A stretch of DNA of 64,000 nt. Origin: Eledone cirrhosa. Its lineage: Eukaryota. Numbering within the stretch: position 1 is the first letter of the stretch; each line of letters starts with the position of its first letter. The translations under genes and the position numbers were made by a program. The notes under the pieces were generated by a model that had not been told where the DNA came from, made no database searches, and saw only the letters and a list, made by a program, of their open reading frames with translations. The stretch lies in the NCBI GenBank assembly GCA_964016885.1, contig OZ024745.1, forward strand, positions 33,232,001 to 33,296,000, given 5' to 3'. Shown in pieces: positions 9,701-63,173 of the stretch.

Positions 9701-10580
9701 AAAGTGGATGTGTAAAAGACATGGCAAAAAGCACCCAGCACACATTGTCAATGTGGTTGGCGTTAGGAAAGGCATCCAGCTGTAGAAAACCTGCCAGAAA
9801 CACTCCTATACGGGCGAGACATGGTCACCCGGCCCAACCTGCCTCTAAATGGGATAAACCTATCCAACCTATGCGAGCATGAAAGATGGACATTAATCAA
9901 TGGTGATGATGATATATATATATATATATAAATTCAAGAGCAAATGACATATATAGGAATATATCAAACAATACACAGAAGATAATTTCTTAATGGCAAT
10001 AGAACTATGGTTCATCTTTGAATGGTGAAGTTCAAAATGGTGAGTCAGAATCATCAGCAAGAGAGAGCTTAATCCATACGAACTCACACATCTAAGCAAA
10101 TCTAAAGAATTTAAGGAATTTAAAAACATGTATTAGGGTTGATACAACTGACTAAACCTTTCAAGGCAGGGCTTCAGCATGGTCCCAGTCCAATGATGTA
10201 AGCCAGTAAAAAAATAAAATATTAGATTCAGCTGATACAACCCTTTCCTTGGGCTAAGTACATATATATATATTAGAAAGTGAGATTTTTTTACAAAATG
10301 AAAAATAACTGAGGTGTCCTACACGAGTGAAAGTCTAGAGAAAAAAAGATGAAATCGAAAATGCAACTGGAGTCTTATTTAAAAAAAAATATATATATTT
10401 ATTTGGTTCATCACAAATGTGAGAAAAACCACCAGACCCTCCATCTCAACTCTACTTTTGAAAAGCAGAAGAACTGTGAAACCAGTAAAGGAACCAAATA
10501 AATATATATATTTAAAAAAAATAAGACTCCAGTTGCATTTTCGATTTCATCTTTCTCCCCCCCCCCTCTCTCTCTCTCTC

Positions 10581-16600: not shown

Positions 16601-19600
16601 CATTAGCACTACCCCATTACATCACTAGTGCACTCATTGAACCCTTGGCTAAGCTGCAAATGGCACCACCTCTATTCCATTACAACACTAGGGCACTATA
16701 TGAATAATAAACAGAAAGTAATTTGACCTTTTCTTTAGATAGTTCAACACATTTCTGTTTGAAGAGGACTTGCTTCTTTGCTTTAGCCAAATCTTCTTCA
16801 ATTTGGTTTTCTTTCTTCTCCAGGTTTTCTGCCATTAATCTATGAAATTCTTCATCATAGGAATCATCATCATCTTGATGGTAAATTTGTTTGGGAAAAT
16901 AAAAAAGTCAAGTCAGTTATTTGTCAAAATTGATATCATGACCAAGTATTTTATTAAAGAATCAGTGACAGAAAGGAGGTTATGTAACATTCATGATTTC
17001 CTCAAAGTCATTAACAGTTTAAATGAGGCAAATTATCTTTAATCTTCCTCATACCAAACCACCTGAAACTGTCCCTGGTTCTATGATACACAACTTTGTT
17101 TTAAAATCTTCCATCATAATTTTATGCAAGTACTGTTGTTATGTTCCAAACATCAGCTTAATAATAAGAAACTTAGTTTCGTCCTTCCCTCTTTCATTCT
17201 TCTGTAGCCCTAGAGTCCTTGCTTTCCCCCCCCTTTCCTGTTTTTAAATATTTGTAATGTTTTTTAAAATTATTTTATAGTCATTCATTCATGTCACTCA
17301 TTTATTAAGTTATGTGTATTTCTTTGACAGCTAAAAATATTTGTTTGTCTACAAATGGTTAACAAGAGTAATTCTTGATTATTTAAAAAAATTATTTGAA
17401 AATGAAAGGCAGTATCTTTAATAGACATATGGTAACATAACAAAAGGGTTTACCTGTAAGTGACTCCAGGTAGCAACGTGGCACACACAAAGCTCCACAA
17501 TCATAAAGTTGTTTACATAGCAGTGATAATGTATTCTTAAATGTCACAGATAATACAGACACAGGCATAACTGTGCAGCTGAGAAGTTGGTTTTGTAACC
17601 ACATGGTTTTAGGTTCTATCCCTCTCTGTAGTACATTTGGTGAGTGTATTTACACTGGGCTGACCAATGTCTTGTGCCTGTCAGTGAATTTGGTCTGTAA
17701 AGAACTCCAGCTTTGTGTGTGTGTGGGGTGTATGTGTAAGGGGGTACCTGTGTGTGTGTAAAGGGGTACCTGTGTGTGTGGGGTGTGTGTGTATGGGGGT
17801 ACCTGTGTGTGGGGTGTATGTGTGTATGGGGGTACCTGTGTGTGTGTAAGGGGGGTATGTGTGTGGGGTGTGTGTGTAAGGAGGTACCTGTGTGTGGAGT
17901 GTATGTGTCTAAGGGGGTACCTGTGTGTGTAAAGGGGTACCCTTGTGTGTATGGGGTGTGTGTGTATGGGGGTATCCGTGTGTGGGGTGTGTGTGTAAGG
18001 GGGTACCCGTGTGTGGGGTGTGGTGTGTGTGTAAGGGGGTACCCGTGTGTGGGGTGTGTGTGTGTGTATGGAGGTACCTGTGTGGGGTGTGTTTGTGTGT
18101 GTATGGAGGTACCTGTGTGTGGGGTATGTGTGTGTAAAGGGGTACCCGTGTGTGGGGTGTATGTGTGTGTATGGGGGTACCCGTGTGTGGGGTGTGTGTG
18201 TAAGGGGGTACCGTGTGTGTGGTGTGTGTGTGTATGGGGGTACCTGTGTGTGTGGGATGTGTGTGTAAGGGGGTACCCGTGTGTGTGGGGGTGTGTGTGT
18301 AAGGGGGTACCTGTGTGTGTGTGCACACATATATCAGTTTACCACATGCAGTATAAACAATATGACCCCAGTTTTATAGCTTTAAATCTTTAGCATTCAC
18401 ATTACTCTATATATCATCATCATCATCCTCATTTTACGTCCGCTTTTCCCTGCTTGCAAGGGTGAGACGGGAACTGATTCTGGCTTGATTTCTACAGTTG
18501 GATGCCCTTCCTAACACCAACCTCATTTCTACAGCTGAGTAAACTGGAGCAATGTGAAATAAAGTGTCTTGCTCAAGGAAACAACACATCACCCAGTCTG
18601 AGAATTGAACTCACAACCTTTCGATTGCAAGGCCAATGCTCTAACCACTAAGCCATGTGCCTCCATATACTATTATATTTTCATGGTAAAGGCTTTACCT
18701 CACATAATATCGAATCTATGAGATTTTGAAAGTATTTATTTTGAGAACAATACCTTAACATCAGTATGAGTGACCAGTTACAGCCAGTTTCAACAGAAAG
18801 AGGTAGAGAATTCTGGCCGGTTTTGGCCAGTTTGAACATTAAAGGGTTAAAATAATTATAAATGTAGAACAGTAACTCTGAATAAAAAAAAACCTATAAC
18901 AGCATAGAAAGCAAATGTTAAATGATGATGTAAAAAAGACCAAATCATATTACCCTTTGTTAAGAGTTCCTTATTGTTTGTTTGGTCAAGAAAGTTGGTA
19001 AATTGATGGCTGTCAAGAATAGCTTTGATTTCTAAGTTCTGTCCCATTTGTGTCTTCAGGATTTCCACTTGTGTTGCTTTGTATATGATTTCTTCAAGAT
19101 ATTCCTCAGATTTCATCTTAGCAGTATTGTATTCTGCTGTTTTGGATTTCACATCTTTAGTCATACATTGCAGTCTTTCTCTGGTGTCTTTCAACATCAC
19201 GAGTGCTTTACTAGTTCATAATAGAAGAGGAAGTAGAGAGATTATATGATGTGGACAGCAGACAATGACTGGAACATCTTTGATCATAGGTCTGCTCAAT
19301 GAAGACTGACCAGAGACCAACAATAGCAATGGCAACAACAATAGCAACATTTATCTAAATTTGATTAAACTTACTTAATTTTCTCCATTTTCTCTTTTCG
19401 TTCATTACTTTTCAAGCCAATGAGATATTGAAAGCAGTGAAATAGCTGTTCATAAGTCTTTGTTGATATGAAACTTCTTTGGTTATTTGAGGGAGAAAAT
19501 GTTTGTTGACGTTTCAACCTAAACACAGACAAACAGTGGTTTTTATATAACCTCATTTCAAATAATCTATCTCAAACTTAACCAAATAGAAAGCAACCAC

Positions 19601-22600: not shown

Positions 22601-24168
22601 TTAAGAAGAGCATTTGGCTGTAAAACATTGTCTAAAAAAATCCAGTCCAATCCATGCCAACATGGAAAAGTGGGTGTAAAAACGATAATGCTACTGCTGC
22701 TGACGATGATGAATCAGCATCACTAATAACAACAAGGTAAGTGTAGAATTTTTTTTTTCATAATTTGAAATAAACTTACTTTAAGGATCAATGCAACAGG
22801 ATTGTTCAAACTGCCAGCTTGTTTCACTGCCGTCTTCAGAACTTCAGACAGATCATTACCAGTAAACCATTCTATCTCTATAATTGTGGTGTTGGTCATT
22901 TCACATGTTAACATGTAGATGCTAACAATGTCACTGACAACACTACTGATTGTGAGAAGGTGACTCCTGTATAAATGACACAATATAAGACATATAGTAC
23001 AACTCATCATGGTAGTGATAAATACTCATTGTATATATATATATATGTGTGTGTGTGTATATATCATCATCATCAAACGTCTATCTTCCACGCTATGTAC
23101 ACACACACACACACATGCTTACGCACGTGCACAAGTATAGCTTTTTTTACAAAATGTTTTTTTTTTCCATTTCAGGTAGATGCACTCCATCATTCACTTT
23201 TCTAAAAAATAAATCATACACAAAACGCCAGCACCAACAGTTTTGCAAGAGATGTCAACATGAATGGACCTGTTATTTTTATCTAAAGACATTTTTTCCA
23301 ATTCCAACCCGCCCATCCCCTTAATCTATCTTATTTCTCATTCTTTCTTCGGATGAAGGACTAGCATCCGAAACGTTAAGACCCTCTTCCTGCTATATCA
23401 AGCATTAACCTAATATATCCGTTCCATATACTGTACAGATTGTGCTGTTATTTCAGTTTACCTTTTACATACATATATATATATACATTTTAAAAATTAG
23501 GATTGGTGCTCTGAAATAGCGATGTATACATGAATGTATGTATAGTATATTTGGCAATATACCGTATGTTTAATTCAAAACATTTTGAAGACCTTGCGCT
23601 ATCATTTTTAAAGTAGTGACTATGTCACTTCTTTTTTCAGCAAAGGAAGGGAGAGAAGCTGACAGATTCTGTTTCACACTGTTGGTGTTTCTCAAAGCAA
23701 CGTACTCCCCACCTCTGCGGAAAATTATAGAGGCTGGATTCTTATAGAATTCCAGTAATAAGCAGGAACTGATTATACAGAGCGATTGCCGGTCCTGCAA
23801 ATATTAAAAATTAGGAATGGTATATTGCCAAATATACTATACAGACATTCATGTATACATCGCTATTTCAGAGCACCAATCCTAATTTTTTATTTTTGCT
23901 GGATGGGCAATCGCTCTGTAGAATCAGTTCCTGCTTATTACTGGAATTCTATAAGAATCCAGCCTCTATAATTTTCCGCAGAGGTGGGGAGTACGTTGCT
24001 CTGAGGAACACCAACAGTGTGAAACAGAATCTGTCAGCTTCTCTCCTTTCCTTTGCTGAAAAAAGAAGTAAGTGACATAGTCACTACTTTAAAATGATAG
24101 CGGAAGGTCTTCAAAATGTTTTTAATTAAACATACCGTATATTGCCAAATATACTATACATACATTCA

Positions 24169-24205
<37 letters not shown>

Positions 24206-24579
24206 ATATATGTGTGTATATATATATGTATATATACCATGACCTCTGGCGTCACGCACTAATACAGAAGACTCGACCCCCCCATGAAGCATATAGACAA
24301 TATGCCGCCACACCCTCCCACTGCAAAGTGGTTGTGGAGGTACCAGCCAACACTGTAAAGTGGATGTATAGGTGTCATGGAAAAAAGCACCCAGTATTCA
24401 CTGTAAATGAGGTTGGTGTTAGGAAGGGCACCTAGCTGTAGAAATCAAGTCAGAATCAGTTCCCATATGAGTAAGGCATGGTCAGCCGACCGGACACTGC
24501 CCACAACAGGACAACTCGTCTAACCCATGCTAGCGTAGAAGAACGTATGATGTAAAACGTTGATGATGATGATATGTAT

Positions 24580-24610
<31 letters not shown>

Positions 24611-25656
24611 ACGTTTAACGTCCGTGTTCCACGCTTGCATGGGTTTGGACGGGGGTAGTCCCACTTGAGGCAAGAGTGATTGTCTTGCTCGCATAGGACT
24701 GTCTGGCAGGTTTTCTACAGTTGGATGCCCTTCCTAACACCAACCACATTTACAGTGTGGGTCTGGGAGGTTTTTACCGTGTTGCCTACATGGCCACATT
24801 ACAGCGTGGACTGTGTTTTTTTGTCGTGACACCTACACGATCTCATTTGTTTCGGCCTGGATGGCGCGGCACCAACATAACTTTACATAGAACGGGGTGG
24901 TATGGATGGGGTGGGGGTGGTGGTGGTGGGACGGGGTGTATTTTGTATATATATATGTATATATATGTATATATATATGTATATATATATACATATATAT
25001 ATACGTATATATATATATACATATATATATATACGTATATATATATATATATATCCAGTCCTAAATAAATGAGGTCGTGTAGGTGTCACAACAAAAAAAC
25101 CACACAGTCCACGCTGTAATGTGGCCGTGTAGGTAACACGGTAAAAACCTCCCAGTCCACACTATAAACGTGGTTGGTGTTAGGAAGGGCATCAAACCGT
25201 AGAAAACCCGCCAGACAGTCCTATACGAGTAAGACAACCAATCTTGCCTCAAGTGGGAAAATTCCCGTCTAAACCCATGCTAGCGTGGAAGATGGACGTT
25301 AAACGATGATGATGATGATGATGATACGTATATATATATATATATATATATTGTGAGTTCGATTCCTGGACCAGGCGATGCGTTATGTCCTTGAGCAAGA
25401 CACTTTATTTCACGTTGCTCCTTCTACCTGGAGTTGCGACCGATAGATAGTATTAGCAATTGGAAAGACCAACGGAAACATTGTTCCCTCGGTCCGATTT
25501 GACGAAAGTCGATCGTTCCTTTTTATATATATATATATGTATATATATACATAGTTACAATTTCAAGGAAATCGGTCTGATGTAACACCTCAAAAAACCC
25601 CTAAAAAGCTGAAAAAAACGCAGTTTTTCACCTATATATATGTATATATATATACG

Positions 25657-25690
<34 letters not shown>

Positions 25691-26433
25691 CGTATATATA
25701 TATATATATGTATATATATATACGTATATATATATATATGTATATAGAAAGGATGAATATAAAATGAAAGTGCTTTTTTTTAAAAAAGGAATTTATTAGG
25801 TATTGACATATGTTTCTGTAACAGACTGAATACCTATGTATCGCTGCTTGCGTAATCATATAATGTTAGCAAGTATTCGATAGCAAATGTATAATCAGTT
25901 GTCACTTCTTCAGAGATTTTGGATAAATTGGATAAAATCAGAAAAATTGAAGTATTTATATTAGTAATAGAGGAAGAAGAGAGGGGATAGTATATGACAG
26001 ATGGTAAATTAATTTACTGCTAAACAAGTATATAATGGGTTTCTAATGAGAATACCATGAGTAAATCTAAATAAGAATTTTGGGAGTGCCAATTTTAATC
26101 TCTACTTGACCAACTGGACAGTGGACAGGGCTGGTCATTTGGTGCAGTAGTATTAATTATAAAGTGTCAATTGGGGAAGGGGGAGATTTCGATTGCTACT
26201 AAATAACATCAATGCTAGTAGCCAGCTGGTATATGCATTAGGGAATTGAATCAAGAAATCAGAAATCTCATTTTATCTATAGCAGTTTGTATTAAAAGGT
26301 AAATAATAGAAGAGTTGATAGAATTAAGACTAATAAAGAATGTTCATATCTATTTTGACAATCAAACGGGGATAGAGACAGGCGTTCAATCCTGGTAGTA
26401 TTTATAATATGTATATATATATATATATATACG

Positions 26434-26511
<78 letters not shown>

Positions 26512-26514
26512 TAC

Positions 26515-26552
<38 letters not shown>

Positions 26553-26580
26553 GTATATATATATATATATATATATATAC

Positions 26581-26616
<36 letters not shown>

Positions 26617-26617
26617 G

Positions 26618-26648
<31 letters not shown>

Positions 26649-27052
26649 GTATATATATATATGTATATATATACGTATATAATTATATATATATATATAT
26701 ACGTATATATATATATATATACATATATACTTTAACTTTAATTATATCTCATAAAATAATACAACTGGTTTTTCCACATTATACATATTGTTAGCACCCC
26801 AAACACTTAAATTGGGTTTATATTTTAATATAACCTAATGTTTGTTGAGTGAGATGGTTACCAGTCAGAGTTTAGCTTTAAACTATCTCTGTTATTGTAT
26901 TAAATATATACGTATATATATATACGTATATATGTATATATATATATATACATATATACGTATATATATATATATATATATATACATATATACGTATATA
27001 TATATATATATATGTATATATATCTCCATATGTACGTATATATATATATACG

Positions 27053-27121
<69 letters not shown>

Positions 27122-30100
27122 GTATATATATATATATACATATATACGTATATATATACATATATATATAGGTGAAAAACTGCGTTTTTTCAGCTATTTA
27201 GGGGTTTTTTGAGGTGTTACATCAGACCGATTTCCTTGAAATTCTAACTATGTATTAGTCAGTCTCTTCTTCATACCGTGAGGAAAGAAAATCCAACATT
27301 TTCATGGCCCGCATTAGGTGAACAACTTCATTTTTTCAGCTTTTTAGGGCGTTTTTGAGGCGTTACGTCTAAATCGCAATCAGAGTTATTTCCCTTGGAA
27401 TATATTGTATTATTAGAAGTCTAATCTCCTTATAATATATAACCAGCAATTTCTCTGTTTGTCTGTCTGTCCGACAGTAGAAGCGCGTGCGAATGTTTTT
27501 TGCACACGCGTAGAGAGAGAGTGAGAGTGAAAGAAAGAGACAGACTACGAGAGGGGGATAGCGGGAGGGAGAGAGGGAGAAAGAGGGAGAGTGAATAGAC
27601 GCTAAAACACGTGCGCGCGTGCGAATGTTTTTGGCGCACGCGTAGAGAGAGAGTGAGAGTGAAAGAAAGAGACAGACTACAAGAGGGGGATAGCGGGAGG
27701 GAGAGAGAGGGGAATTGAGGAGTGCTACAGAAACATATATACATTTCTGTGTCATCATCATCATCATCATCAACGTTTAACGTCCGTGTTCCACGCTTGC
27801 ATGGGTTTGGACGGGGGTAGTCCCACTTGAGGCAAGAGTGATTGTCTTGCTCGCATAGGACTGTCTGGCAGGTTTTCTACAGTTGGATGCCCTTCCTAAC
27901 ACCAACCACATTTACAGTGTGGGTCTGGGAGGTTTTTACCGTGTTGCCTACACGGCCACATTACAGCGTGGACTGTGTGTTTTTTTGTCGTGACACCTAC
28001 ACGATCTCATTTGTTTCGGCCTGGATGGCGCGGCACCAACATAACTTTACATAGAACGGGGTGGTGTGGATGGGGTGGGGGTGGTGGCGGGACGGGGTGT
28101 ATTTTGTTAGAGATGCCTACTGGCAAGGCGGGTCTTCTCTGTTACTGAGTACCGCCAAAGGTCACGGTCCAGTGACATTGTCTTGGAGAGGTGTAAGTGT
28201 GTGAGGTCGGAGTTTATCAGCTCATCCCATGTTTTTCTAGGTCTGCCTATTCCGTGGCTACCGTCTATCTTTATTGCCCTGCACTTTGTAATACAGCTAT
28301 CGACTTTCATGCGCATCACGTGTCCATACCAACGCAGCCTTCTCTCGAGTAAACAACATCTGATCCCTCTTATCTCTAATTTTTTCCTTAGTTCGTTTAT
28401 GCTTTGCCGTTCACGTATATTACTGTTACACATCCAGCGGAGCATGCAAGCTTCGTTCCTCTCTAGTCTGCGTATATCCTCTGCACACAATGCCCAGGTC
28501 TCACTACCATGCAACATTGCTGTTCGTATGCAGGCATCGTACAACCTGCCTTTCATTTTTAGGGAGAACCCTTTAGCAGCTAATAGTGGTATAAGCTCTC
28601 TGAACTTTTTCCAACCAGTTCTGACTCTAGCTACAGTACTTTCAGAGCACCCTCCCCCACTGCTGATTTTATCGCCCAGGTAACGGAAGCTGTCCACTAT
28701 TTCTATAGAACCCTCTGCGCAATTGAAAGAGCTAGTATTTTGTGGGCACTTGCTGCTACTTATTGCACCAGAACACCGGCCACATGTAAAGTCTATGTTC
28801 TTAGTTAGCTTACCTGTGATCCCACTACATCTTTTATGCACCCATACTTTGCATTTAGGACATAAGATGGAGTTTCTACCTACGCCTTTCCTACATACCG
28901 AGCACGACCATTTCCCAGAAGGGACCGCCGCCTTGTTTTCTTTCCTACAAACTAGAACTTTGGTCTTAGCCAGGTTAATTTTAAGTCCTTTTGACTCTAG
29001 GCCGTGCTTCCATGTTTGGAATTTCTTCTCTAGCTCGGCCATTGATTCCGCTATGAGTGTCAGGTCGTCTGCGTATAGGAGTTCCCGTGGGCAGCCTGTC
29101 TTGAACTCCTCTGTTATAGCCTGAAGGGCAATAATAAATAGTAGGGGGCTGAGAACAGAGCCCTGATGGACGCCAACTTTTACGCTAAACTCTTCACTAT
29201 ATTCGTTGTTAATTCTAACCTTGCTGACTATTTCTTTATACATGGCTTGTATAGCCCTCACAAGCTATTCGTCAACGCCTAGTTTTCTAAGAGCCCACCA
29301 GATAATGGAGCGGGGGACTCTGTCGAAGGCTTTCTCCAGGTCGACAAAAGCTAAGTAGAGGGGTTTACCTTTAGCTAGGTACTTCTCCTGTAGTTGTCGT
29401 ACTATGAAAAGAGCGTCTGTGGTGCTTTTGCCTGACACAAACCCGAACTGCATTTCATCTAGATCAATTCTCTCTCTGATTAGTTGCGCTATTACTTTTT
29501 CCGTGACCTTCATGACCTGGTCGATTAATTTAATGCCTCTATAGTTACTCCTATCTAGGGCGTCTCCTTTACCCTTATAACAGTTAACGATGATGCTGCT
29601 ATGCCAGTCCTTCGGAACAACCCCATCCTGTACGACTTGGTTAACTATGCGGGTGACCATGGTGTGTCCCACCGTGCCAGATGCCTTCAGCATCTCAGCA
29701 ACTATTTCCGAAGGCCCAGCCGCCTTACCAGTCTTCATATCCTTGATTGCCTTACTTATTATACTCCCCTCGACTAACACTGCTGGTCCCTCTATCGGGT
29801 CGATATGGGGGAGACTGTCTTTCTCCCATTTATTCTCCTCATTTAGTAGCCTTTCATAGTAACACTTCCAAGCTACCTTCTTATCAGTGTCGGTGAGGGC
29901 AAGTATGCCATCATCGTTAAGTACACACTTCTCCCCGACAATATCACGGTTTTCCTTGACGTGTGTGTAATATATATATATATACACACACAGAAATATA
30001 TATACATTTCTGTGTGTGTAATATATATATATACTAGCAGAAAACCACACGGTAGGCGGTTTTCTGCTAGTCTATATATATAAAACTGAGGATGTCTGTC

Positions 30101-30749
30101 TGTGTGTGTGTGTGGGTGAGTGTCAATCCTAAAACTCGAGAAGTACCCAACCGATTTTTTTCAAACTTAACATGTGTATTACTTATGTTTCAGGGAGTGT
30201 TATGCACATACAATTCAACTTTTTGATCCCCTAGAGCCTGCATTAGTTGAAAAACTGCGTTTTTTCAGCTTTTTAAGGTTTTTTTGAGGCGTTACGTCAG
30301 ACCAATTTCCTTGAAATTGTAACTATGTATTAGTCAGTCTCTTCTTCATACCGTGAGCAAAGAAAATACAACTTTTTTATGGCTTCGGACCCGCATCAAG
30401 TGAAAAACTTCATTTTTTCAGCTTTTGAGGGCTTTTTTGAGGTGTTGCGTCTAGCCGATTTCCCGAAATTTCAAGGCATATTATGCACATAAAAAAAATT
30501 GCTTTTCTAGATCCCCTAGGGCCCGCATTAGGGGAAAACCTGCATTTTTCCTGTTTCATCGAGGAAAATCTTATCCAGCCATCAAGAGTATTCGGTTTAT
30601 TTTCTTTACATATTGTCCAGGCATGCAGTCTTTCCACGATTAGGTCTGTTGGCGGCCCGCGTTCCAAAATACCTTATCCCGTGCAATGCTGGGTACCACT
30701 GCTAGTATATATATGTGTGTGTGTGTGCATATATGTGTGTGTGTGTGCA

Positions 30750-30810
<61 letters not shown>

Positions 30811-33800
30811 ATATATGTATATATATATAATTCAAATAAAAAAAAATCTATGTATATATCCATATAGCATTAGAGAAACACATAGTATTTTGTACACATA
30901 TAAAAGGCATATAATATTTAGGAAACAGTAGATACTTTAAAGTGGAAAAGTTATCTTCCTTATGGTTGCCATTTCATAGTTCATAGAACCAGAGTGAAAA
31001 TCGATCTAAGCAATCAATCATCAATTACTATTGATTTTGATATAAAAACATATGAAACAGCTGCCATAAGGAAGATAATAACTTTTCCACCTTAAAGTAA
31101 TAATTAATTGATTAAATGTATGTATTTCTATTTAATCTTATATATTTGTCAAATGATAATAAACTTGTGTACTCTTAATATTATATAATCATTTCTACTC
31201 TAGGCACAAGGCCAGCAATTTGGGGAAGGGCAAAGTCAATTTAATTGACTTCAGTGCATTACTGGTACTTCATTTTATCGACCCCGTAACGATGAAAGGC
31301 AAAGCTAACCTCGGTAGCATTCAAGCTCAAAATGCCAAGGGCCATAACTCTGTGCCGCAAAGCATGTCCAAAGCTCTATGGATTCTGCCAATCCACCGCC
31401 TTCATAAATATTATATAATAAAAACAGTTTAATGAATAAAAGTCTGAAATATGTTTAAAAAGAAAAATGAAAAATAGCTACAAATATAAAAAAAAATATA
31501 TATATAAACAATGTAAAATGAGAGATTTTATATCATAAAATCATGGGTGATCTCAGGCAGATCGGTATTGAATGGGTTAAAACATGTTGCCACAGGGTTC
31601 CAGTTCAATTTTTACACAAAGCCAACTACTTGAAAGGATTAATCCTTTTTTGTTCTTTTGTCACTGCAGATGTTTTACATACATTTTTTTAAACAATTGA
31701 AGATCGGCTGAACTAAATATAATTGTTTTACTATTGGCACAAGGCCAGCAATTATCCCAGTACATTATTGGTACTTTATTTTATCGACCCCGTAAGGATG
31801 AAAAGCAAAGTTAACCTCGGCAGGATTTGAACTCAGACCATGAAGGGACGTAACTCTTTGCTGCAAAGCATGGCATCTGACCCTCTACCGATACTGCCAA
31901 TCCTCCGCCCTTCTGCCATTAATATATTTTTCTTTTTATATATATATAATTTAAATGGCTGAACTAAATATAATATTTACCTGTCATGACATGTAAGGAG
32001 TCGGTGGACCTTAGTAATCTGAGATATCACATGTTCAGAAGGAATTATTTCAAGGGGTTTCATTGGATGATCTGAATTATACATATCAATATGTCTTTGA
32101 ATGGTAGCTTCTAGTGGTAACAGACTTTCTGTTTGATATAAAACATTCTGAAGGAAACAAAATAACATAATAATAATATTATATTAAAAAAATAAATAAA
32201 TAAATAATAATAATTATTATTATCATTGCTGGACAGTATTAGTAAAGCTGTGCAGCATGTAGTTACATTCTGAGTTGAAATCCTGCTTAGGCTAGACAGA
32301 AAATTTATTAATAGCTGCTCAAGGTCAAACACTAAACACAAACTCGATAAGGAATATGTATAACCCAGAGGAAGCAAATAAGTGTAGGTTATGTGGGAAG
32401 AAGGTAGAAAGTGTGACACATATTGTGAGTGCCTGTGTTATGATTGCACAGAGGGAATATAAAAGGTGTTGCAATAAAGTGTGTTTACATCTCTATTGGT
32501 CTTTATGCAAGAAATATGGGTTTGTAACCACTGAGAAATGGTATCAGCACAAACTGAAGAAGGTCCTAGAAAATCAGACTCTTGTGGGACTTTACAATCC
32601 AATAAGATAGAGTTCTTGAAAATACATGGCCAGACATAACTTTGGTGGAGAAATGTAATGTAAGTGGGTGTTTGTTGATTGATATAGTTTGCTCAAGAGA
32701 TCATTACATCAGTAGTAAAGAAAACAAGAAAATTGTAAAGTATGCTGATTTGTGGAGAGAATGTGGAATATGAAAGCAAGAATAGTACCAATTGTTAGTG
32801 GAGCACTTGGGTCGGTGAGAGAGGACCTCCAGAAAAAAAAAACCTTGATAGAATTGGAATCAGACCCAGCATTACAACATTGTAGAAACAATATATTTGG
32901 GAAATATTCTGCAGAAAATATCCTGCAGAAAGTACTGTCTATCTGAAGTTACATAACTTTATAAGGAGTCAAATGATCCAGTGTTAATAAGATCATCACT
33001 GTGCAAATATGAATAATAATATCAATGAGATTCTTACATATGTATGTTTACTGAGTAAGGTAGAATGTGAAGATGGTCTATTTCTTGAAGGAATTGTGAT
33101 AAAATACCTAACATCTGGGGTTACCACCACACCAGGCCATTTCTATAAAAGAGAAAAGAATTTAAGAAAAATAAAGCATTTATAATTAAAAAGAAAGAAG
33201 CAATTTCTTGCAGGGGCATCAAACCCAGATATGTAAACGAGAGAATAATGTAGGATTGTATGGTATTCATGCCTTTATAGATTAATGTAAGTAAAATGGT
33301 TACAACTGTCTGATATCATTAAGATAACTCTGAAATAACTAAGTGTAAACTAGTGTATTAAGTACAAAACAGTGTAAGACAGTGTACTAAAGACAAGATA
33401 GTGTAAAAATATTACTAACTACTAGGCAATGTAAGGCAGTGTATTAAGTATAAGTGAAACGACAGATTCCTGGCTTGTCTGGGAGGTCTGTAGCCACTGC
33501 TTCAGTACTAACTTAGTCTATGCAGATCCATTCAACCCTTGCTAGCAGGGAAAGCGGACATTAAAACGATGATGATGATGATAATATAACACAGTGTACT
33601 TAATGCTAGATAGTGTAAGGTAGTGTACTAAATACAAAATGTACTACATACAAGGAAATGTACTAAATGCAAAATTATGTAAGATAATTTAGTAAGTACA
33701 AGACAGTAAACAATGTACAAAGTACAAGACAGATAAGTATTGCATCATATACACCGGTCTTTATTGCCACCACTGTCGCCACCACCATCACCACTACCAC

Positions 33801-41200: not shown

Positions 41201-44200
41201 ATGAAATTGAAATGTATGTTTATTTTTGTTGTAGCACAAAGTAATGTTTGTTAATTTGTATGGTTGAAGTTAAACATAAAAAGGTTACAAAAGGAATGTG
41301 CCATTGTGTCAGGCCCAAAGCAGGCCGGCAGGCCAAAGTGCAAATCTCACCGTTACACATTGTACGTGTCGTTCCTTCGGAGTTCAAGCAGCAAGAGACA
41401 GATTCTTCAAATCCTTGCGGGGAATTTCTCCCTCAGGGCGCGTAGGAATACATTCTCTTCTGCTGGCACCGATTGGCTGAACTGAGCCAAATCACGCATA
41501 GAGAATGTATGTGAGCCCGCAGAATGTAGGTCACTACAGTATTTATTCAAGAACAGATACAGATTAAAGAGTATATTAATTGATTATAATGCTAATTTTG
41601 TTACCTTATAGTCAACAAAACACAAAATAGACTGACATCTTATCCCAGGGTGAAGTATCTTTCAATAGTTTATTTTCAGTTGGAAAAGAATTGACTACAG
41701 AGTTGTGAGACAGATGAAAATTAAGTCGAGAAAGTTACAGTGTAACAAAGGTAAATTTTAATGTATTTATATTATTATTATTCAAATATAGTTTGAGTGG
41801 GGAAATTGACAGCAGAATTGGTAGAGCACCAGACCTAATGGGGTTAACATATTTTCATCCTTTTGAAGTCAATAAAATACAAGGTGGCATATTGGCAGAG
41901 CAGTTAGAACATTGGATAGAATACTTTGTGGTATTCATTCTGGCTGTCATTGCTGAGTTCAAATCCCATTGAGGTCAACTTTACCTTTCATTGTTCCAAG
42001 GTCGATGAATAAATACCTGTCCAGTGTTAAGGATGTTGGACTTACGATCATACTGTCATGGGTTTGATTCCTGGACTGGGTTTTGTGTTGTGTTCTCAAG
42101 TAAAACACTTCATTTGATATTGCTCAAGTATACTCAGCTGAAAATGAATATCAGCAACAGCTGGGAGTTTAACCTTGCGATGGGCTGCGGCCTGTTCAAG
42201 TGGGAGTCTTGCTACTCTCAGTTGTTTAATTCCATGGAAACTGGGATAAACACCTGTCTGATGAGCCTCTTGGCTTGAAACAGACTTTAGACATTTTTTT
42301 TCTATATCTTTTTCTTATTTCTTCTTCTTCATTCTCTCTTTTTCTCAGGAAGAAATCAGCTGTGTTCAGACATGGAGAGGGGATGGGCTCTGCCATGTTT
42401 AAAATGCCCAAGACACACTGTATGTCATTACAGAGCCCCTATGACTTCTCCAGGAATTATGTTACAATACATACAAAATACAATACTAGGTCAAGTACTT
42501 TGATTGTTCCTATCACATGATGCCTAACAGCTGATTCTTTGGTTATCAATCTGTTGTCCTATCAACATTGCCATCTATGATCCTCAGCAATAATCTAGGA
42601 ATAACAATAATAAACCAGAAACTTACCTAAAGTTGACATGAAGGCATTTATTAATGAGGTCTTTCCAGACCCTCTGGGACCACTTAACAGGAAATGGAAA
42701 CCATTCTGTGTGAAATTATTTATGAAGTATTTTATAGGGATCTGAAAATAAAATATTTAATAGGATCCTTAAATATAAATTTTCAATTGGAAACAAAAAA
42801 TAAAATACTAACTCTTAATGTCCTGTACTACATGAAACTGCATTAGCAAAATATTCTTGAAAAGTACAAAATAGTACTATGATTGTAATATGTTAAACAG
42901 TCTTTACTTTAACACTGTAAACTTCTACAATGACCTATCCACTAATAAAGACACTAGAAACATTTGAATTAAGTAACCCTACTTTAAAACATTTTCTATG
43001 AAACCATTAGAAGATGCTAAGAGTTAAGCAGAGTTCTCAAAGTACAAAATTAAATAGGGAGTAAAAAATACAATATTAACCTTTCTAAGGAATAACACTA
43101 TTTTGAAAATATTTTGAATAATCAAATAATTTTGAAAATAATCAAGGATTTAGAAAGATTTAGAAATATAAACTAACTTTCTTATTAAGCTGGTGTTTGG
43201 AACATAACTTACTTAAGGTTTTTATATAAAATTAAGATGAAAGGTTTTTAGAAAAATATAAATACTTGAAAATAAACAGGGGCAGTATCAAATACTTTGG
43301 TAGCAAGAGGATTAAATAGAGACCAAAAAGTACAATAACATATATATATATATAGTGTAGGTGAATCGTTCTTTGTTATATATATATAATTAAGAATGGT
43401 TTCTTGAAGCGAATCAGGAAGAAACTACAGTTAAATAAGGTACTCATTGCATTAGTAGAGAAGATAAATAATTATTTCATATAGAAATGACTTCTACAGG
43501 ACTATAACTGTTTCATTTGTTTGAAATCATCAGGAATATTCCTAATGATTTCAAACGAACAACAGTTCTAGTCTTGTAGAAGTCATTTCTATATGAAATA
43601 ATTATTTATCTTCTCTACTAATGCAATGAGTATCTTATTTAACTGTGGTTTCTTCCTGATTCGCTTCAAAAAACCATTCTTATATATATATATATATATA
43701 TGACGATGATGATGATGAGGACAACTTACTGTTCTTAGTGTGTATACATATTCTCTGTTGAAGTTATCTTGTATAACCGGAGACTCTTCAAGTGATCTAG
43801 AAAAATTAATCGTCTTGAATTTATCAAATGCATTGTGAAGTTCAGAGTGGAAGGATGAAAGGCAAAGTCAACATGGGTGGGATTTGAACTCAGAACATGA
43901 TTTATTTAGTCCAATGCTCTACCAATTCTCATCAATCACTCATCAATATTTATCCCTTTAGCGTTTACATTACTCTATATTTACTATTATATTTTCACAG
44001 TAAAAGCTTTACCTCACACAATTATCTCACATAATATCAAATCTATGAGATTTTGATATTATTTATTTTGAGAACAATACCTTAACATTAGTATGAGCAG
44101 TTGGTTGCAGCCGGTTTGAACAGAAAAGAGAATTCTGGCCAGATATGGCTGGTTTAAATGCTAATGGATTATATCTTAATATCATCCTCATCATATCATT

Positions 44201-47200
44201 TAACATCCATTTTCCATTCTATTGACCTCTAACACATGTTCCTGCACTCTACAGAGTACACCGGGTGCATTTTATCATGGCACCAGCACTATTTATATAT
44301 TTATAAGATAGTCAAAGGAGGAAGACATTATCTTTAACCATTACAGGACCTTCCAGACTGGTGAGAATGATGCCTTGCTTGAACATCCAGGAAAAACTTG
44401 TAACAGAGAGGGAACTGTAGGAATGATCCAAATCCTATAAAATGGAATGAACTTTGCTAAAGGGCGCCCATAGAACCAAGTGGTGATGAAGATGATGGTG
44501 GAGGTGGTGGTAGTAGTGTTGTTAAATGACACAGAAAGAAACCAGGACTTTTTCCCAAACTTACTTTATGTTCCAGTTCTCCCATTCTCCTGATTCATCA
44601 ACAAAAAAGTCAAACAAATAAACATCATTTTCATCTTCAGGACATCTAAAATATAGAATTATTTCTGAAGTAAGTTTTTGAAATAAAAGGAAGAAATTAG
44701 TATTTAAAATTAAAACATTTTCATCATTGCTATATATATCATATATCAAGCCTTTTGGTGCTAAGGGGCTTTTGGGGTTTATGCCCCTCCAATGTGGAAA
44801 CTTGTTGAATGATCTTAAAGTTTTGTTAGTTAAAAAATTATGTATTACTATTCAAATAAGTAACAAGTACAAATAAACACAATAAAAAGCAAGCTTTTGT
44901 TATACCATCAAAGATATCAATAGCTGTGAATGTTATGTCTATCATTATCAAAACACACAATGTATTTTTAAAAAGCAAAAAACAAATACTTATAATTTAT
45001 TTCAATATACTTGTGCTCTGGTTTTTACTACATTGATTTCCTATTGGCTCTCTGTTAGTACGATGATGTTTTTAATTTCTTTCTTAGTCTTGTATTGGGG
45101 ATAAAAGGCGCGAGCTAATAATAATAATACACATGCACAATATATGTGTATTATACACTAAAGGGGAAAGTTGATTACATCAATCCCAGTTCTTTACTGG
45201 TACTTAATTTTATCAACCCAGGAAGTATGAAATGTAAAATTGCCTTCAGTGTGTTTTGAAGTCAGAATTTAAAAGGTCATAACTAGATTCCACAAAGCAA
45301 CCTGTTCAATGCTTTAATTATTCTGCCAATCCACTGTCCTAAACATCACCTTAAGAATGAGAAAGTTGGTTATATTACTAAATCTCACGGAATTATCCAT
45401 TTTCGAAATGATTTGAAAATTAAAGGCAGTGTTTTTCATTAGAAATATGGTAATAAAATAATTAAATAATACTAGAGTTCTTTTTTTTCAAGTTTATACT
45501 TACAGATTGGTTCTTAATTTCAGAATGAATTCATTGAAGTGGAGTCTATCATTGCTGGAGAGATGGCCACCAAAAGACCACAACAGGCTGAATATAAAGA
45601 GCTTCTTAATATGACTATCATTAGAAATTGTGTGGCAGTTGGACAGTAGAACTGTTAGTATCTGAAGAGATGTAATAATCATACCAACTTCCGTAAAATG
45701 GACCGAGTCCCTGGCAAATACAAGAAGTGATTTAAAATGTTGTCATTAACTTTAAAGACAGTTCAAATTGATTGTAGTATTTGAAAAGATAAACATGCAA
45801 ATATATGTAAGGAGAAAAAAACGTTATTTAGTTTCAATGATGTATTTGTATAAATTAGATTTATATTTTTAACTGTTGGTCAATCAATGATAAATGTTGA
45901 TTGCCAGCTAAATTATTTATAAAAATATACTGAACCGAAAACCAAACCAAACAGTGAGTGTGTTTTACTAGTTTTTGGCAATATGAGGACATGACCTTCT
46001 CCAAATATAACAATAGTTATTTAATTTATATTTGCAATGTGTATGCAAATATATATGGAATGTGTATGCAAATATATATGGATCTGTCGATCAATTGGTT
46101 ATTGATTAGGCGAAACCTGCTGATGAAGCCACATGCGCCAATTGTGCACTGTAGCATAATAAATGCAGACTGTGGATGCTGTGCACTCTCTTGCTGCATT
46201 AGGTGTGGCCAAAACTCGAGTACAAGTATAGATTTATGGTACCCATTTACGTGTGTTGTATTGAAGTAAATAACCTTACCTATTGAGGATGCTGAGATGC
46301 AACCGGTACTAGCAGTGAAACTTATGCTAGTCCCTTCAACTTATATATATTGATGAGAATACAATAATGTTAGAAATGTATAGGAATAATTTCTCATGTT
46401 TTACTCTGTGATGGAAATTGAAATTATTTCCACTTCACACTTCATTCCATAGGCTTAAAACTATCTTTGGTTATGTAATATTACATAACTATACAGTCCA
46501 CCTCCTTAGGTCACAGCCTCATTAGATGTACCAAAACATTGACTGTTAAAAACACTGTGTGTGTGTGTGTGTGTGTAATTAAAAAAATATATACAAGTAT
46601 CTCACTTTATTTCTGTCTTGAAGAATTGAATGACAGAATCCATACTGGTTTGGTAACATTGCATTAGAATCTGACAATAGAAGAAACATTATTTACTCTC
46701 TTGCATTAAGGAAAACAAGACCAGATTATATGAAATGCAATCTTTATTGTGGTGAACTGGAAGTGATGTCAAATGTAATTTAGTAACGTTATGGACCTAA
46801 GTCTTTAACTCTTTAGCATTTACATTACTCTATATTTACTATTGTATTTTCACAGTAAACACTTCATCTCTATGCTCTATGAGATTTTGATATTTATTTT
46901 GAGAACAATACTTTAACATAAGTATGAGTAGCTGGTTACGGCTGCTTTGAACAGAAAGAGGTGAGAGAATTCTGGCTGGATATGGCCGGTAAATGCTAAA
47001 GAATTAAAGTTAGTAGAGTTATCAGCTTGATTCAGAAGTTTCTGGAAACAGAAGAATAATCAGAGACTTTACCTTTGAATTGTAATTTCTAAATTTCTAA
47101 TACTATTTCATATTTTATTTAGCCAGAGAGTCAGTCAAGTATACCAACCCAGTCACACTTACCTCTGCAATATCATAGCCATTCTTGGATGAATTAATCT

Positions 47201-54968: not shown

Positions 54969-57900
54969 AATGAACCAATTCCGTCAGAAAAGTCCAGGAA
55001 AAAAGAGTGCTCTATGTAGGTAACAGAGCTTAATAGTTATGTAATAAACAACATAAGGCAATTATTTCATTTACCAGTGGTTTCTTAAAAGCAAAAAAAA
55101 ATTGCTTTCAATCATCAGAATGAAAAAATCCTGGAGTATTTATTGATGTTGGATTTTAAAAACAAAAATGCAATCTATATCGTATGTATATAGATATAGA
55201 TTGCATTTTTGTTTTTAAAATCCAACGTCAATAAATACTCCAGGATTTTTTCATTCTGATGATTGAAAGCAACATTTTTTTGCTTTTAAGAAACCACTGG
55301 TAAATGAAATAATTGCCTTATGTTGTTTATTACATAACTATATATATATATATATGCAGAAATCCCAGCAATTACCCTCTATTGGGTAAATGCTAGTACA
55401 AAAATATCATTTATTAATGTGTGGTACAATCTAAACTGGGATATATAAATATGAGGGTTCCACTTCGAATATTTAATTTAAAAAAATGGTATGTGCACAC
55501 CCACACATTTAAAACCCCCAGTTTAGCTAGGTCTAAAGCCTTGGCAAAAACAATCTGGGATCTGAAACGTGCTAATATTGAATACACAGTACAATGGTCC
55601 GTCCATACCGGAATGAAAGCTGCCCCTGTGAACTATGTTTGGCGGAGGTAATTGAAATAGTGACCGGAAAGGACCTAAATTCCCAGCATGATAGGATATT
55701 TAATTGCAAACATAAGATTCTAAAAATCTTCGCTAAATACAAACTGGACTAGAACAAGATTCAATCCCTAATGCCCAGGTTTTACTATATCCTATTTGGT
55801 ACATTTCCTGTGGAATTTGAACTTTTCACACCCAATGGATTCAGTAATATTCAAAGCAATCCCATTTTCTTAATTCCTTTCCTCCTTACCCACTCTAGCC
55901 TACTCTTAACCTCTGCCTTATCTTTCTCTGTCCCTCTCCTTATACCTTCTCTACTCCCATATATGGTAAACATCAAAACCTTCACCTATAACAATGGTCA
56001 AAGAATAATTATTCCACATCACAGCCCACAGATTGATAGTGTGAAACTCTTTACTCCCACTCCCTCTCATCTCTACTATCACACTAACTGACTCTATCTC
56101 ATTCTATTTTTAACATATTTACATATTCTTAAACGAAAATCTCATCACTGAATTATACCCCGTAGTGAATAGGTTTTCTGAAGAAGTGTAATAAATAATT
56201 AAGTATTTCATATGATTGAACAATATATATTGTAGTCAGCATAAGTAGACAATTTATAATAGACACAGAATCATATGTCAAAGCAAATAAACCCATAATC
56301 TCTTCATGTCAACATTTTATTTTTCTTGGTGCAATACTTGCTTATATATATATATTGTATTGTTATTTACTTACAGTTGAAGTTCAGCTAAAGAGACAAT
56401 CTCTAATAATCTTCCTGCCAGAATATTTCCACACTTGAAACCAGCAGCAATAAAATATCCCCTTAAAATACAGTAAATATCTGGTTTAAGGAGAGACACT
56501 GTTCGAAATACTGATTTAATCTTCCGAGCAAATTGCCAGTTTGATTTGCCAGTTTGATTCAATGGTGCAGTCATAAAGAAGAAAGTTCTTGGATTCACTT
56601 CAAATGTCTACAGGAAAATCAGTAAATGGGAGAATGTAAAACCTGAGAAATGTAATAAATATTTTCTCCTTACATTTTATTAACTTGTACAACATTTGGG
56701 AAATGAAAGGGTAAAATATTATACCTACTACATGGTCAATACATTAACCCTTTCATTACTATATTTCTAATGAAAATATACTGTTTCAAGGAATTAATAA
56801 AGAATTTTGAATGATTTACTAAAACCATTAATTATTTCATTCTTAAGATAGTTTTATGTAAGAACAATTTGTTACAAATACTATGCTAGAAGATTTTAAT
56901 TTAACTCTTTCATTACTATATTTCTAAAAAGATACACTGTCTAGCCTCAGCCACTACCAACACCATCTCCATTACCAATCCATTAAATAAGTTTCTAGTG
57001 ATACAGGCTGTACTAAACATAGTATACAAACAGTATATCTTAAGGGACTCTGCTTCATGGTGCTGGCTGACGGGATGGAGAAGACATTGTCCCGGAGGAT
57101 GGCAAGGGAGATGTACTGGAACAGCCACTCCACCTCGTGTGGCTTGGAATTGCAGGCAGCCAATTCCACTCTGATAGCTGTGAGCAGGGATATGGTCTAG
57201 GGGCCAAGAATGCCTGAAGTCTCCACTGCCACAGGCTCAACCATGAACCTATAAGAGAGAAGCCGATACTTGGACAATTTACCTTCTTAGGCCTGGTCGG
57301 CAGTGAAGCCTGAGCTGGATGAGGAGCCAACTCTCGCGAAACAAGAAGATTGTCATGTTGTCTGGCATGCAGTCCAGCTTCACTATCTTAAGCTGGGAAG
57401 AGAAGCCTGCCTATGTATTTTAATTAATTTTGAAAATCATCAAGAATTTGGAGGGATTTAGTTAAAACAGATTCTGTCATTATTAAATTAGTATTTGTAA
57501 CATAACAAAGGCTCTTAAAAAAATATAAGCAATTTAAAAAAAAAAATCATAGAACCAGGGTCAGTTTTAGTAGGTTGGTATCAAAAGGGTTAAGTACCAG
57601 TTAATGTATTGGAGTTGATATAATTGACTAAAAATCTGAGAAGGTGGTAGCCCAGGATGACCACAGATGAATGACTAATAAAAGAAAAAAAAAAAAAAAA
57701 TCAAAGAAAAGAAAATATATGTCATCATCATCATCACCATTTAATGTCTATTTTTTTCCACATTTGCATAGTTGAAACCACATAAGCTTCTTACCTATAG
57801 TGATATATATTTTATGTATAAAAACAAACTAGCAGGAGACTCAGGAATAAATCTCACGCAAGATGGTTGGATATCATCCATGAGCTTGGCTGGTCTCGCT

Positions 57901-62259: not shown

Positions 62260-62621
62260 TCTAAAACTGTTGTGGAACTACTTCTACCAAACTCGTCCCA
62301 CGGATTGAGTGCTCTACTACTACCACCAGTGCTCTGCTAATATATATATATATATATACATATATATTATATATTATATATATATTATTTAGTGTCTAAA
62401 TTCTGTATTATGGAATCATGCTAATATCCGTTAAAATTATACAACTAGTGTACACCTGTTTTTAAAGTGATGGCTGTTTTAATAATTACAGAGAATGCTG
62501 ACTCCATTAAAAAATGAGTTGCAAGAGATGTCAACATGAATGGACTTGTTATTTTTATCTAAAGACATTTTTTCCAATTCCATCCTGCCTGTCCCCTCCA
62601 TCTTACTTATTTCTCATTCTT

Positions 62622-62657
62622 TCTTCTGATGAAGGACTAGAATCCGAAACGTTAAGA
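62622..62657 (+). ncRNA. minimal hammerhead ribozyme (PLE type); mutated copy at 23346-23381
   Basis: tctt-CTGATGA-a-gga(ctagaa)tcc-GAAACGTT-aaga; loopless palindromic helix III. Confidence 0.65.
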
Positions 62658-63173
62658 CCCTCTTCCTGCTCTATCAAGTGTTAACCTAATATATCCCTTC
62701 CATATACTGTACTGATTGTGTTGTTATTTCTGTTTACCTTATATCATAATCATCAACACCGTTTTACGTCCGTTCTTCCACGCTAGCATGGGTTAGATGG
62801 GTTGTCCTGTTGTGGGCATATGGGTTGTCCTCATATGGGAACTGATTCTGGCTTGATTTCTACAGCTGGATGCCCTTCCTAACACCAACCTCATTTACAG
62901 TGAGTGCTGGGTGCTTTTTTTCCGTGGCGCCTACACATCCACTTTACAGTGTGGGCTGGGTGCTTTTTTGCCGTGGCACCTCCACGACCACTTTGCAGTG
63001 GAATGATATGAACCCCAGTCCCTATCATCTCATTTCTACAGCTGAGTAAACTGGAGCAATGTGAAATAAAGTGTCTTGCTCAAGGAAACAACACATCACC
63101 CGGTCTGAGAATTGAACTCACAACCTTTCGATTGCAAGGCCAATGCTGTAACCACTAAGCCATGTGCCTCCAT

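Follow-up and report, generated by a model that had tools for sequence, protein, structure and literature searches.

The window analysed here, i.e., the whole 64,000-nt stretch of the Eledone cirrhosa contig OZ024745.1 between positions 33,232,001 and 33,296,000, contains a dynein heavy chain-like gene (6.7-61.6 kb) on the minus strand and, inside it, a long palindrome carrying two hammerhead motifs. Upon a Pfam scan of 23 translated segments, the domains AAA_6, Dynein_AAA_lid, AAA_7 and AAA_8, the last one with a weak match (E 0.0064), were found on the minus strand, in this order from 60 kb down to 22.8 kb. They flank the palindrome on both sides and bear out the original prediction that the minus strand is the sense strand of the gene. 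Joining the GT donor that follows 31981 to the AG acceptor that precedes 22966 keeps the reading frame, the downstream exon occupying 22966-22780, and the palindrome apparently resides within an intron of about 9 kb, some 520 nt from its acceptor. The gene looks divergent, with an AAA4 devoid of any recognisable P-loop and a weak Pfam match. Searching with one dynein exon for homologues among proteins of up to 2000 residues gave no match, the nearest exon retrieved chance matches only from the PDB, and none of the five short exon candidates matched Pfam. Other repeats are distributed along the same region. A frameshifted LINE fragment comprising RVT_1 and a PHD finger (28107-30071, minus strand), which we take to be RTE-like, occurs within the intron of the palindrome, and a short zf-RVT match at 32296-32610 on the plus strand probably corresponds to the end of another non-LTR element. 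An inverted SINE-like pair (24572-24760 and 25157-25345), located just upstream in the pre-mRNA, represents a further source of dsRNA, and a weak tRNA match of 29.9 bits (18594-18657, minus strand) is likely the head of a tRNA-derived SINE.

The features of the palindrome and of its surroundings are the following:

22967 to 31980, minus strand: inferred intron of the dynein heavy chain-like gene, GT-AG, with a continuous frame, delineated from the sequence
23466 to 23485: left TA-rich tract, likely target site
23492 to 23821, minus strand (dynein-sense): left arm of 330 nt, made up of a 314-nt monomer and a terminal redundancy of about 16 nt
23492 to 23528, minus strand: 3' extension ("tail") of the left arm only, 37 nt beyond the stop point of the right arm
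23658 to 23698, minus strand: type I hammerhead with U3 (23695) and A8 (23690), predicted cut after 23661
23819 to 23821: head-to-head junction, 3 nt common to the 5' ends of both arms
23819 to 23890, plus strand: 72-nt segment that also forms the 3' terminus of the left arm (23563-23492), with 71 of 72 positions identical by BLAST
23819 to 24170, plus strand: right arm of 352 nt, made up of a 317-nt monomer (37% GC) and a terminal redundancy of about 34 nt
23998 to 24038, plus strand: type I hammerhead with C3 (24001) and G8 (24006), GUC triplet, predicted cut after 24035
24168 to 24237: right (TA)n/(TG) tract, likely target site

The palindrome, which is long and imperfect, extends from 23487 to 24175 between the two TA-rich tracts. 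The description initially given, a unit of about 330 bp followed by its inverted and circularly permuted copy with TA tracts on both sides, was confirmed by self-BLAST, in which 23522-24177 matches its own reverse complement and reveals the inverted arms, and by the alignment of the arms. These are about 95% identical and differ, along the paired stretch of 292 columns, by 14 substitutions, the last of which sits on the microsatellite border, and by 2 indels. Both consist of circular permutations of one monomer, each slightly longer than one unit: in the right arm the first 34 nt recur after 317 nt, and in the left arm the first 16 nt or so after 314 nt. Beyond the arm ends, the sequence wraps into the monomer's own start and not into an ORF. 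At the 5' end of the right arm, 56 nt have no mirror at the center of the palindrome. The 37-nt tail may be longer by as many as 7 nt, its boundary with the (TA)n tract being ambiguous, and no target-site duplication is resolvable within the microsatellite at the right flank. The monomer is devoid of any long ORF, the longest ones starting with Met being 74 and 41 codons, and the ORFs of the arms gave no match in a Pfam scan. Further copies of the monomer were absent from the 64-kb window as searched by BLAST and nhmmer, and no partner element was identified there.

The two hammerheads had been located at 23998-24038 on the plus strand and 23658-23698 on the minus strand, and these coordinates are exact. 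Both motifs agree with the type I core consensus (UGA between positions 3 and 8, A9, G12A13A14, A15.1-U16.1, H17 and a Watson-Crick 3-8 pair), both have GUC as the cleavage triplet, and both build an open helix I of 3+6 bp, a helix II of 4 bp and a helix III of 4 bp. The core of the minus copy departs from that of the plus copy at two positions, U at 23695 versus C at 24001 and A at 23690 versus G at 24006, while the remaining core positions and the proximal helices are identical. The claim that two core substitutions leave the helices unchanged stands as regards these two changes and the 17 modelled helix pairs, all canonical in both copies, but a third change occurs in the distal part of helix I, where U at 24047 versus C at 23649 results in a G-U instead of a G-C pair in the predicted fold. 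Helix I is interrupted by an internal loop, its distal part reaching approximately 23975/24059 in the plus copy. In both copies helix II possesses an A10.1-U11.1 pair, versus the usual G10.1-C11.1. Helix III is palindromic and intermolecular pairing is possible, at a predicted -10.6 kcal/mol. A three-helix descriptor allowing either 3-8 pair yielded 7 matches in the window, compared to 0.15 on average for 100 shuffled windows. In Rfam, neither motif was matched at E values up to 10, nor was the 121-nt ribozyme stretch; Rfam is not diagnostic here, its models at gathering level having also missed all other hammerhead motifs of the window and returned a weak tRNA-like match only. Matches to miRNA families over the palindrome, far below their thresholds, reflect hairpins and TA repeats.

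Three more head-to-head elements occur in the same gene, at 55033-55341, 43377-43696 and 10345-10554, all with TA flanks, a longer left arm and an unrelated sequence; the monomer of the 24-kb palindrome shares no similarity with them (local scores of 18-19). The element at 55033-55341, whose left arm extends to about 54969, possesses arms of 97% identity, a 64-nt left-arm extension and type I hammerheads on both strands (55256 plus, 55118 minus) with a helix I of 7 bp, a helix II of 10 bp and the consensus C3-G8 pair. The palindrome at 43377-43696, also located between TA tracts, shows a left-arm extension of about 38 nt; the hammerhead boxes are kept on its minus copy (43533) and broken on its plus copy, and its status as a ribozyme is doubtful as helix II does not form. 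In the element at 10345-10554, inverted arms of 65 bp surround a U3-A8 hammerhead-like motif (10458, plus strand), the minimum-energy structure of which is not a hammerhead, and the left-arm extension reaches about 70 nt. In all four head-to-head elements (10.3, 23.5, 43.4 and 55.0 kb) the extended arm is the left, dynein-sense one, an arrangement expected by chance in 1 case out of 8 (two-sided). In addition, the gene contains two copies, 23243-23471 and 62519-62748, of a unit of 230 nt bearing a minimal hammerhead of Penelope type on the plus strand. These copies are 91% identical and share the same two ends; the 23.3-kb one carries a U4 to G change and stops immediately at the TA tract flanking the 23.5-kb palindrome.

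The two core changes of the minus copy correspond to positions 3 and 8 (C3 to U and G8 to A), the partners of one and the same core Watson-Crick pair. The chance that two substitutions fall on positions 3 and 8 and stay Watson-Crick amounts to 1 in 2460 for the 41-nt motif and to 1 in 165 for the 11 conserved core positions, figures which were computed post hoc and assume equal rates, and which become 1 in 820 and 1 in 55, respectively, if all changes are transitions. In natural hammerheads, C3-G8 covaries to U3-A8 and U3-A8 ribozymes are active in vitro, as reported in PMC3088659. Some 1,300 U3-A8 motifs have been described from Penelope-related sequence of Schistosoma, together with dual motifs lying 100-700 bp apart on opposite strands (PMC4209133), and in a Penelope-like hammerhead single mutants at position 3 or 8 are dead, the double swap leading to a partial rescue (PMC11167929). 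The covariation seen in the minus copy is the same as in the natural variants presented in PMC3088659 and PMC4209133, with the difference that here both alleles coexist in one insertion, in otherwise identical 41-nt ribozymes. The gene-sense hammerhead is a compensated U3-A8 covariant, likely still functional, rather than a knocked-out copy, because the second change restores the 3-8 pair. The reading of the minus-strand core (TTGAGAA) as lost through two mutations is not upheld, since disabling selection would need one change only and the second one re-forms the pair. Two other origins of the differences were discarded: CpG decay, neither core site being located in a CpG, and A-to-I editing, as an A/G difference at a non-border site accounts for just 1 of the 14 substitutions between the arms.

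With respect to folding, the minimum-energy structure predicted for both copies is an alternative pairing, lying 5.7 kcal/mol (plus) and 3.1 kcal/mol (minus) below the hammerhead fold in a model that treats equilibrium folding and not kinetics, and that leaves tertiary contacts aside. Because of these alternative folds and of the A10.1-U11.1 pair, both copies may be slow, or dependent on a dimer or a protein. The circular monomers of both arms fold with a z-score of -4.4, none of 100 shuffles being equally stable. Transcription of the dynein-like gene would produce the antisense arm before the sense arm, and the two would then zip, within the pre-mRNA, into a duplex of about 300 bp hiding the ribozyme whatever its core. 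The hairpin predicted for the pre-mRNA reaches -504 kcal/mol for 741 nt, and for three nascent prefixes ending just past the ribozyme, the predicted probability is 0.000 for helix II and 1.0 for the inter-arm duplex.

These data bear upon the explanation originally put forward, according to which the dynein pre-mRNA is protected from cleavage by inactivating mutations that the host has selected in the core of the sense strand or, in a weaker form, the host tolerates a slower U3-A8 ribozyme. It is true that the variant copy is located on the gene-sense strand, that U3-A8 hammerheads may cleave slower than C3-G8 ones, and that within a 119-nt stretch (23922-24046 region) just two substitutions occur, both in the core. 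Retrozymes are moreover depleted from the introns of Xenopus, according to a preprint (10.64898/2026.07.22.740005) in the searched text of which no strand analysis appears. Against this, the second change restores the 3-8 pair, it is the variant, of the two copies, that is predicted to be nearer the active fold, and the sense-strand motif at 55118 keeps a consensus core and has the hammerhead as its minimum-energy fold. The predicted inter-arm hairpin would also shield the ribozyme, and a host whose ribozyme is buried in this way would need no core mutation. Finally, the strand bias that had been anticipated finds no echo in the window, where the motifs point the opposite way: uncompensated core changes affect none of the three sense motifs (23695, 43533 and 55118) and two of the six antisense ones (23350 and 43542 changed; 10458, 24001, 55256 and 62626 unchanged). 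The numbers of this tally are small and its 43-kb and 10-kb motifs weak; 43533 and 43542 were counted on their core boxes alone, since helix II does not form, and the descriptor match at 45413, a probable chance match outside repeats with long loops, was omitted. Host selection on the sense core is considered very improbable, in its strong as well as in its weak form.

The reading that we hold with good confidence is that of head-to-head, non-coding hammerhead monomers of about 315 nt, likely inserted into (TA)n by Penelope-like enzymes, in which the gene-sense hammerhead is compensated and likely still cleaves. An inverted, 5'-truncated, head-to-head copy (pLTRs) and a tail of 30-40 bp at one end are typical of Penelope-like insertions (PMC3846280, PMC8557442). 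The purified Penelope-like protein from Anolis cuts and extends both strands, favouring AT-rich DNA, uses uncleaved RNA, and begins at two internal positions separated by the length of the 30-40-nt tail (PMC11167929). The palindrome displays the same organization, i.e., a head-to-head inverted 5'-truncated copy, a 37-nt tail within the expected 30-40 nt, and a TA-rich target on both sides. Compared to the insertions with inverted pseudo-LTRs described in these three sources, it shares the head-to-head arms, the short junction overlap, the 3' extension at one end only, the AT-rich target and the hammerhead inside the repeat. It differs from them by wrapping to the monomer start rather than into an ORF, by the absence from both arms of the RT and GIY-YIG ORF that characterizes autonomous Penelope-like elements, and by a hammerhead of the canonical long-helix-I type, theirs being minimal.

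The following scheme would account for this anatomy. A Penelope-type RT/endonuclease acting in trans would cut the microsatellite on both strands and prime two cDNAs, one from each start site, the sites being 37 nt apart in the monomer. The template would be a tandem RNA, or a circular multimer; a non-coding template of retrozyme size, tandem or circular, is suggested because the sequence past the arm ends wraps into the monomer start. The earlier proposal that the permuted ends fit reverse transcription of such a template thereby gains support from the permuted, terminally redundant arms. The truncated 5' ends of the cDNAs would finally be joined through the 3 nt that they have in common. The templates of the two arms were probably distinct monomers, one C3-G8 and one U3-A8, in which case the variant predates the insertion. 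This probable origin relies mainly on the compensated pair and is slightly favoured by the substitution counts, with 1 difference over 72 positions in the junction overlap versus 14 events over 257 elsewhere (Fisher p 0.21) and a likelihood gain of 2.2.

Two other origins have to be weighed against this trans-insertion. Should the arms have been identical at insertion, either from one circular monomer copied twice or from fold-back self-priming, all their differences, including the 3-8 swap, would have arisen in place. Self-priming has been proposed for such palindromes (PMC3846280), and the counts do not reject a uniform divergence (P of 0.13 for at most 1 difference in 72), but for divergence in place one has to assume either that a compensatory double change occurred by chance (1 in 820 to 1 in 2460) or that an intronic copy was under selection for ribozyme activity, and a simple fold-back does not yield the 56 unmirrored 5' nt of the right arm; this origin is accordingly judged unlikely. 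Even less credit, though the difference is slight, is given to a twin priming of LINE type, in which a reverse transcriptase not belonging to Penelope would have acted on the tandem transcript of a retrozyme. Twin priming is compatible with the head-to-head geometry and with the duplicated junction segment, and an RVT_1 fragment (28107-30071) lies in the very intron of the palindrome. However, the palindrome has neither poly(A) nor a resolvable target-site duplication, its 37-nt tail, TA target and hammerhead fit the Penelope-type description, and the same pattern recurs in three other elements of the dynein-like gene.

As to its classification, the monomer corresponds to a non-LTR retrozyme by its non-coding nature, its size within 150-450 bp, its GC content below 50% and its type I hammerhead. 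The arms, inverted and with a direct redundancy of 16-34 nt, do not form the head-to-tail array of at least two complete ribozyme units that defines retrozyme arrays. On these sequence features, the palindrome is best filed as a retrozyme-like derivative, i.e., a non-autonomous, hammerhead-bearing insertion of Penelope type, and not as a retrozyme array. It resembles the metazoan non-LTR retrozymes, as presented in PMC7229834 and 10.64898/2026.07.22.740005, in size (314-317 nt), GC content (37%) and lack of coding capacity, in its type I hammerhead with a palindromic helix III, and in its stable predicted circular fold and signs of a tandem or circular template. It differs from them in its inverted arms with a tail in place of a head-to-tail array, and in a circle predicted from the fold alone. 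The same preprint contends, on the grounds of co-occurrence and homology, that the retrozymes of animals are non-autonomous elements derived from Penelope. No description of head-to-head retrozymes was found among the main texts of freely accessible papers that the literature search covered; the word "inverted" is absent from the main text of PMC7229834, as is "tail" from the searched text of the preprint 10.64898/2026.07.22.740005. Among the papers listed for octopus hammerhead ribozymes, none deals with such insertions as judged from title and beginning of abstract, and the one listed for retrozymes and cephalopods treats Penelope clades.

A broader and more tentative idea, rather doubtful at present, is that the head-to-head geometry is self-silencing. 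Retrozyme monomers would be inserted by the two-start-site Penelope mechanism from heteromeric tandem RNAs, intact sense hammerheads surviving in introns only inside palindromes, and unshielded ones only in antisense orientation. The silencing would operate from either direction, because the arm antisense to the ribozyme is transcribed before it. In the window, all three sense motifs occur in palindromes, and the three motifs devoid of a complementary copy (10458, 23350 and 62626) are all antisense, a distribution with a chance of 1 in 8. Were shielding of this kind to apply across the whole genome, it would account for the tolerance of active ribozymes within introns.

All of the components encountered here have already been described, namely the retrozyme-like monomer, the inverted Penelope-type insertion with its tail, and the U3-A8 covariation. 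What is distinctive is the combination of a retrozyme-sized monomer with the anatomy of a Penelope insertion, and the occurrence of both core alleles in a single insertion. The palindrome corrects a misreading, in that two changes in a hammerhead core can amount to one compensated pair, and it offers a natural matched pair for comparing C3-G8 with U3-A8 in an identical scaffold. In addition, the anatomy of the insertion, with its tail, inverted arm and TA target, adds to the case that the retrozymes of animals travel with Penelope-like machinery.
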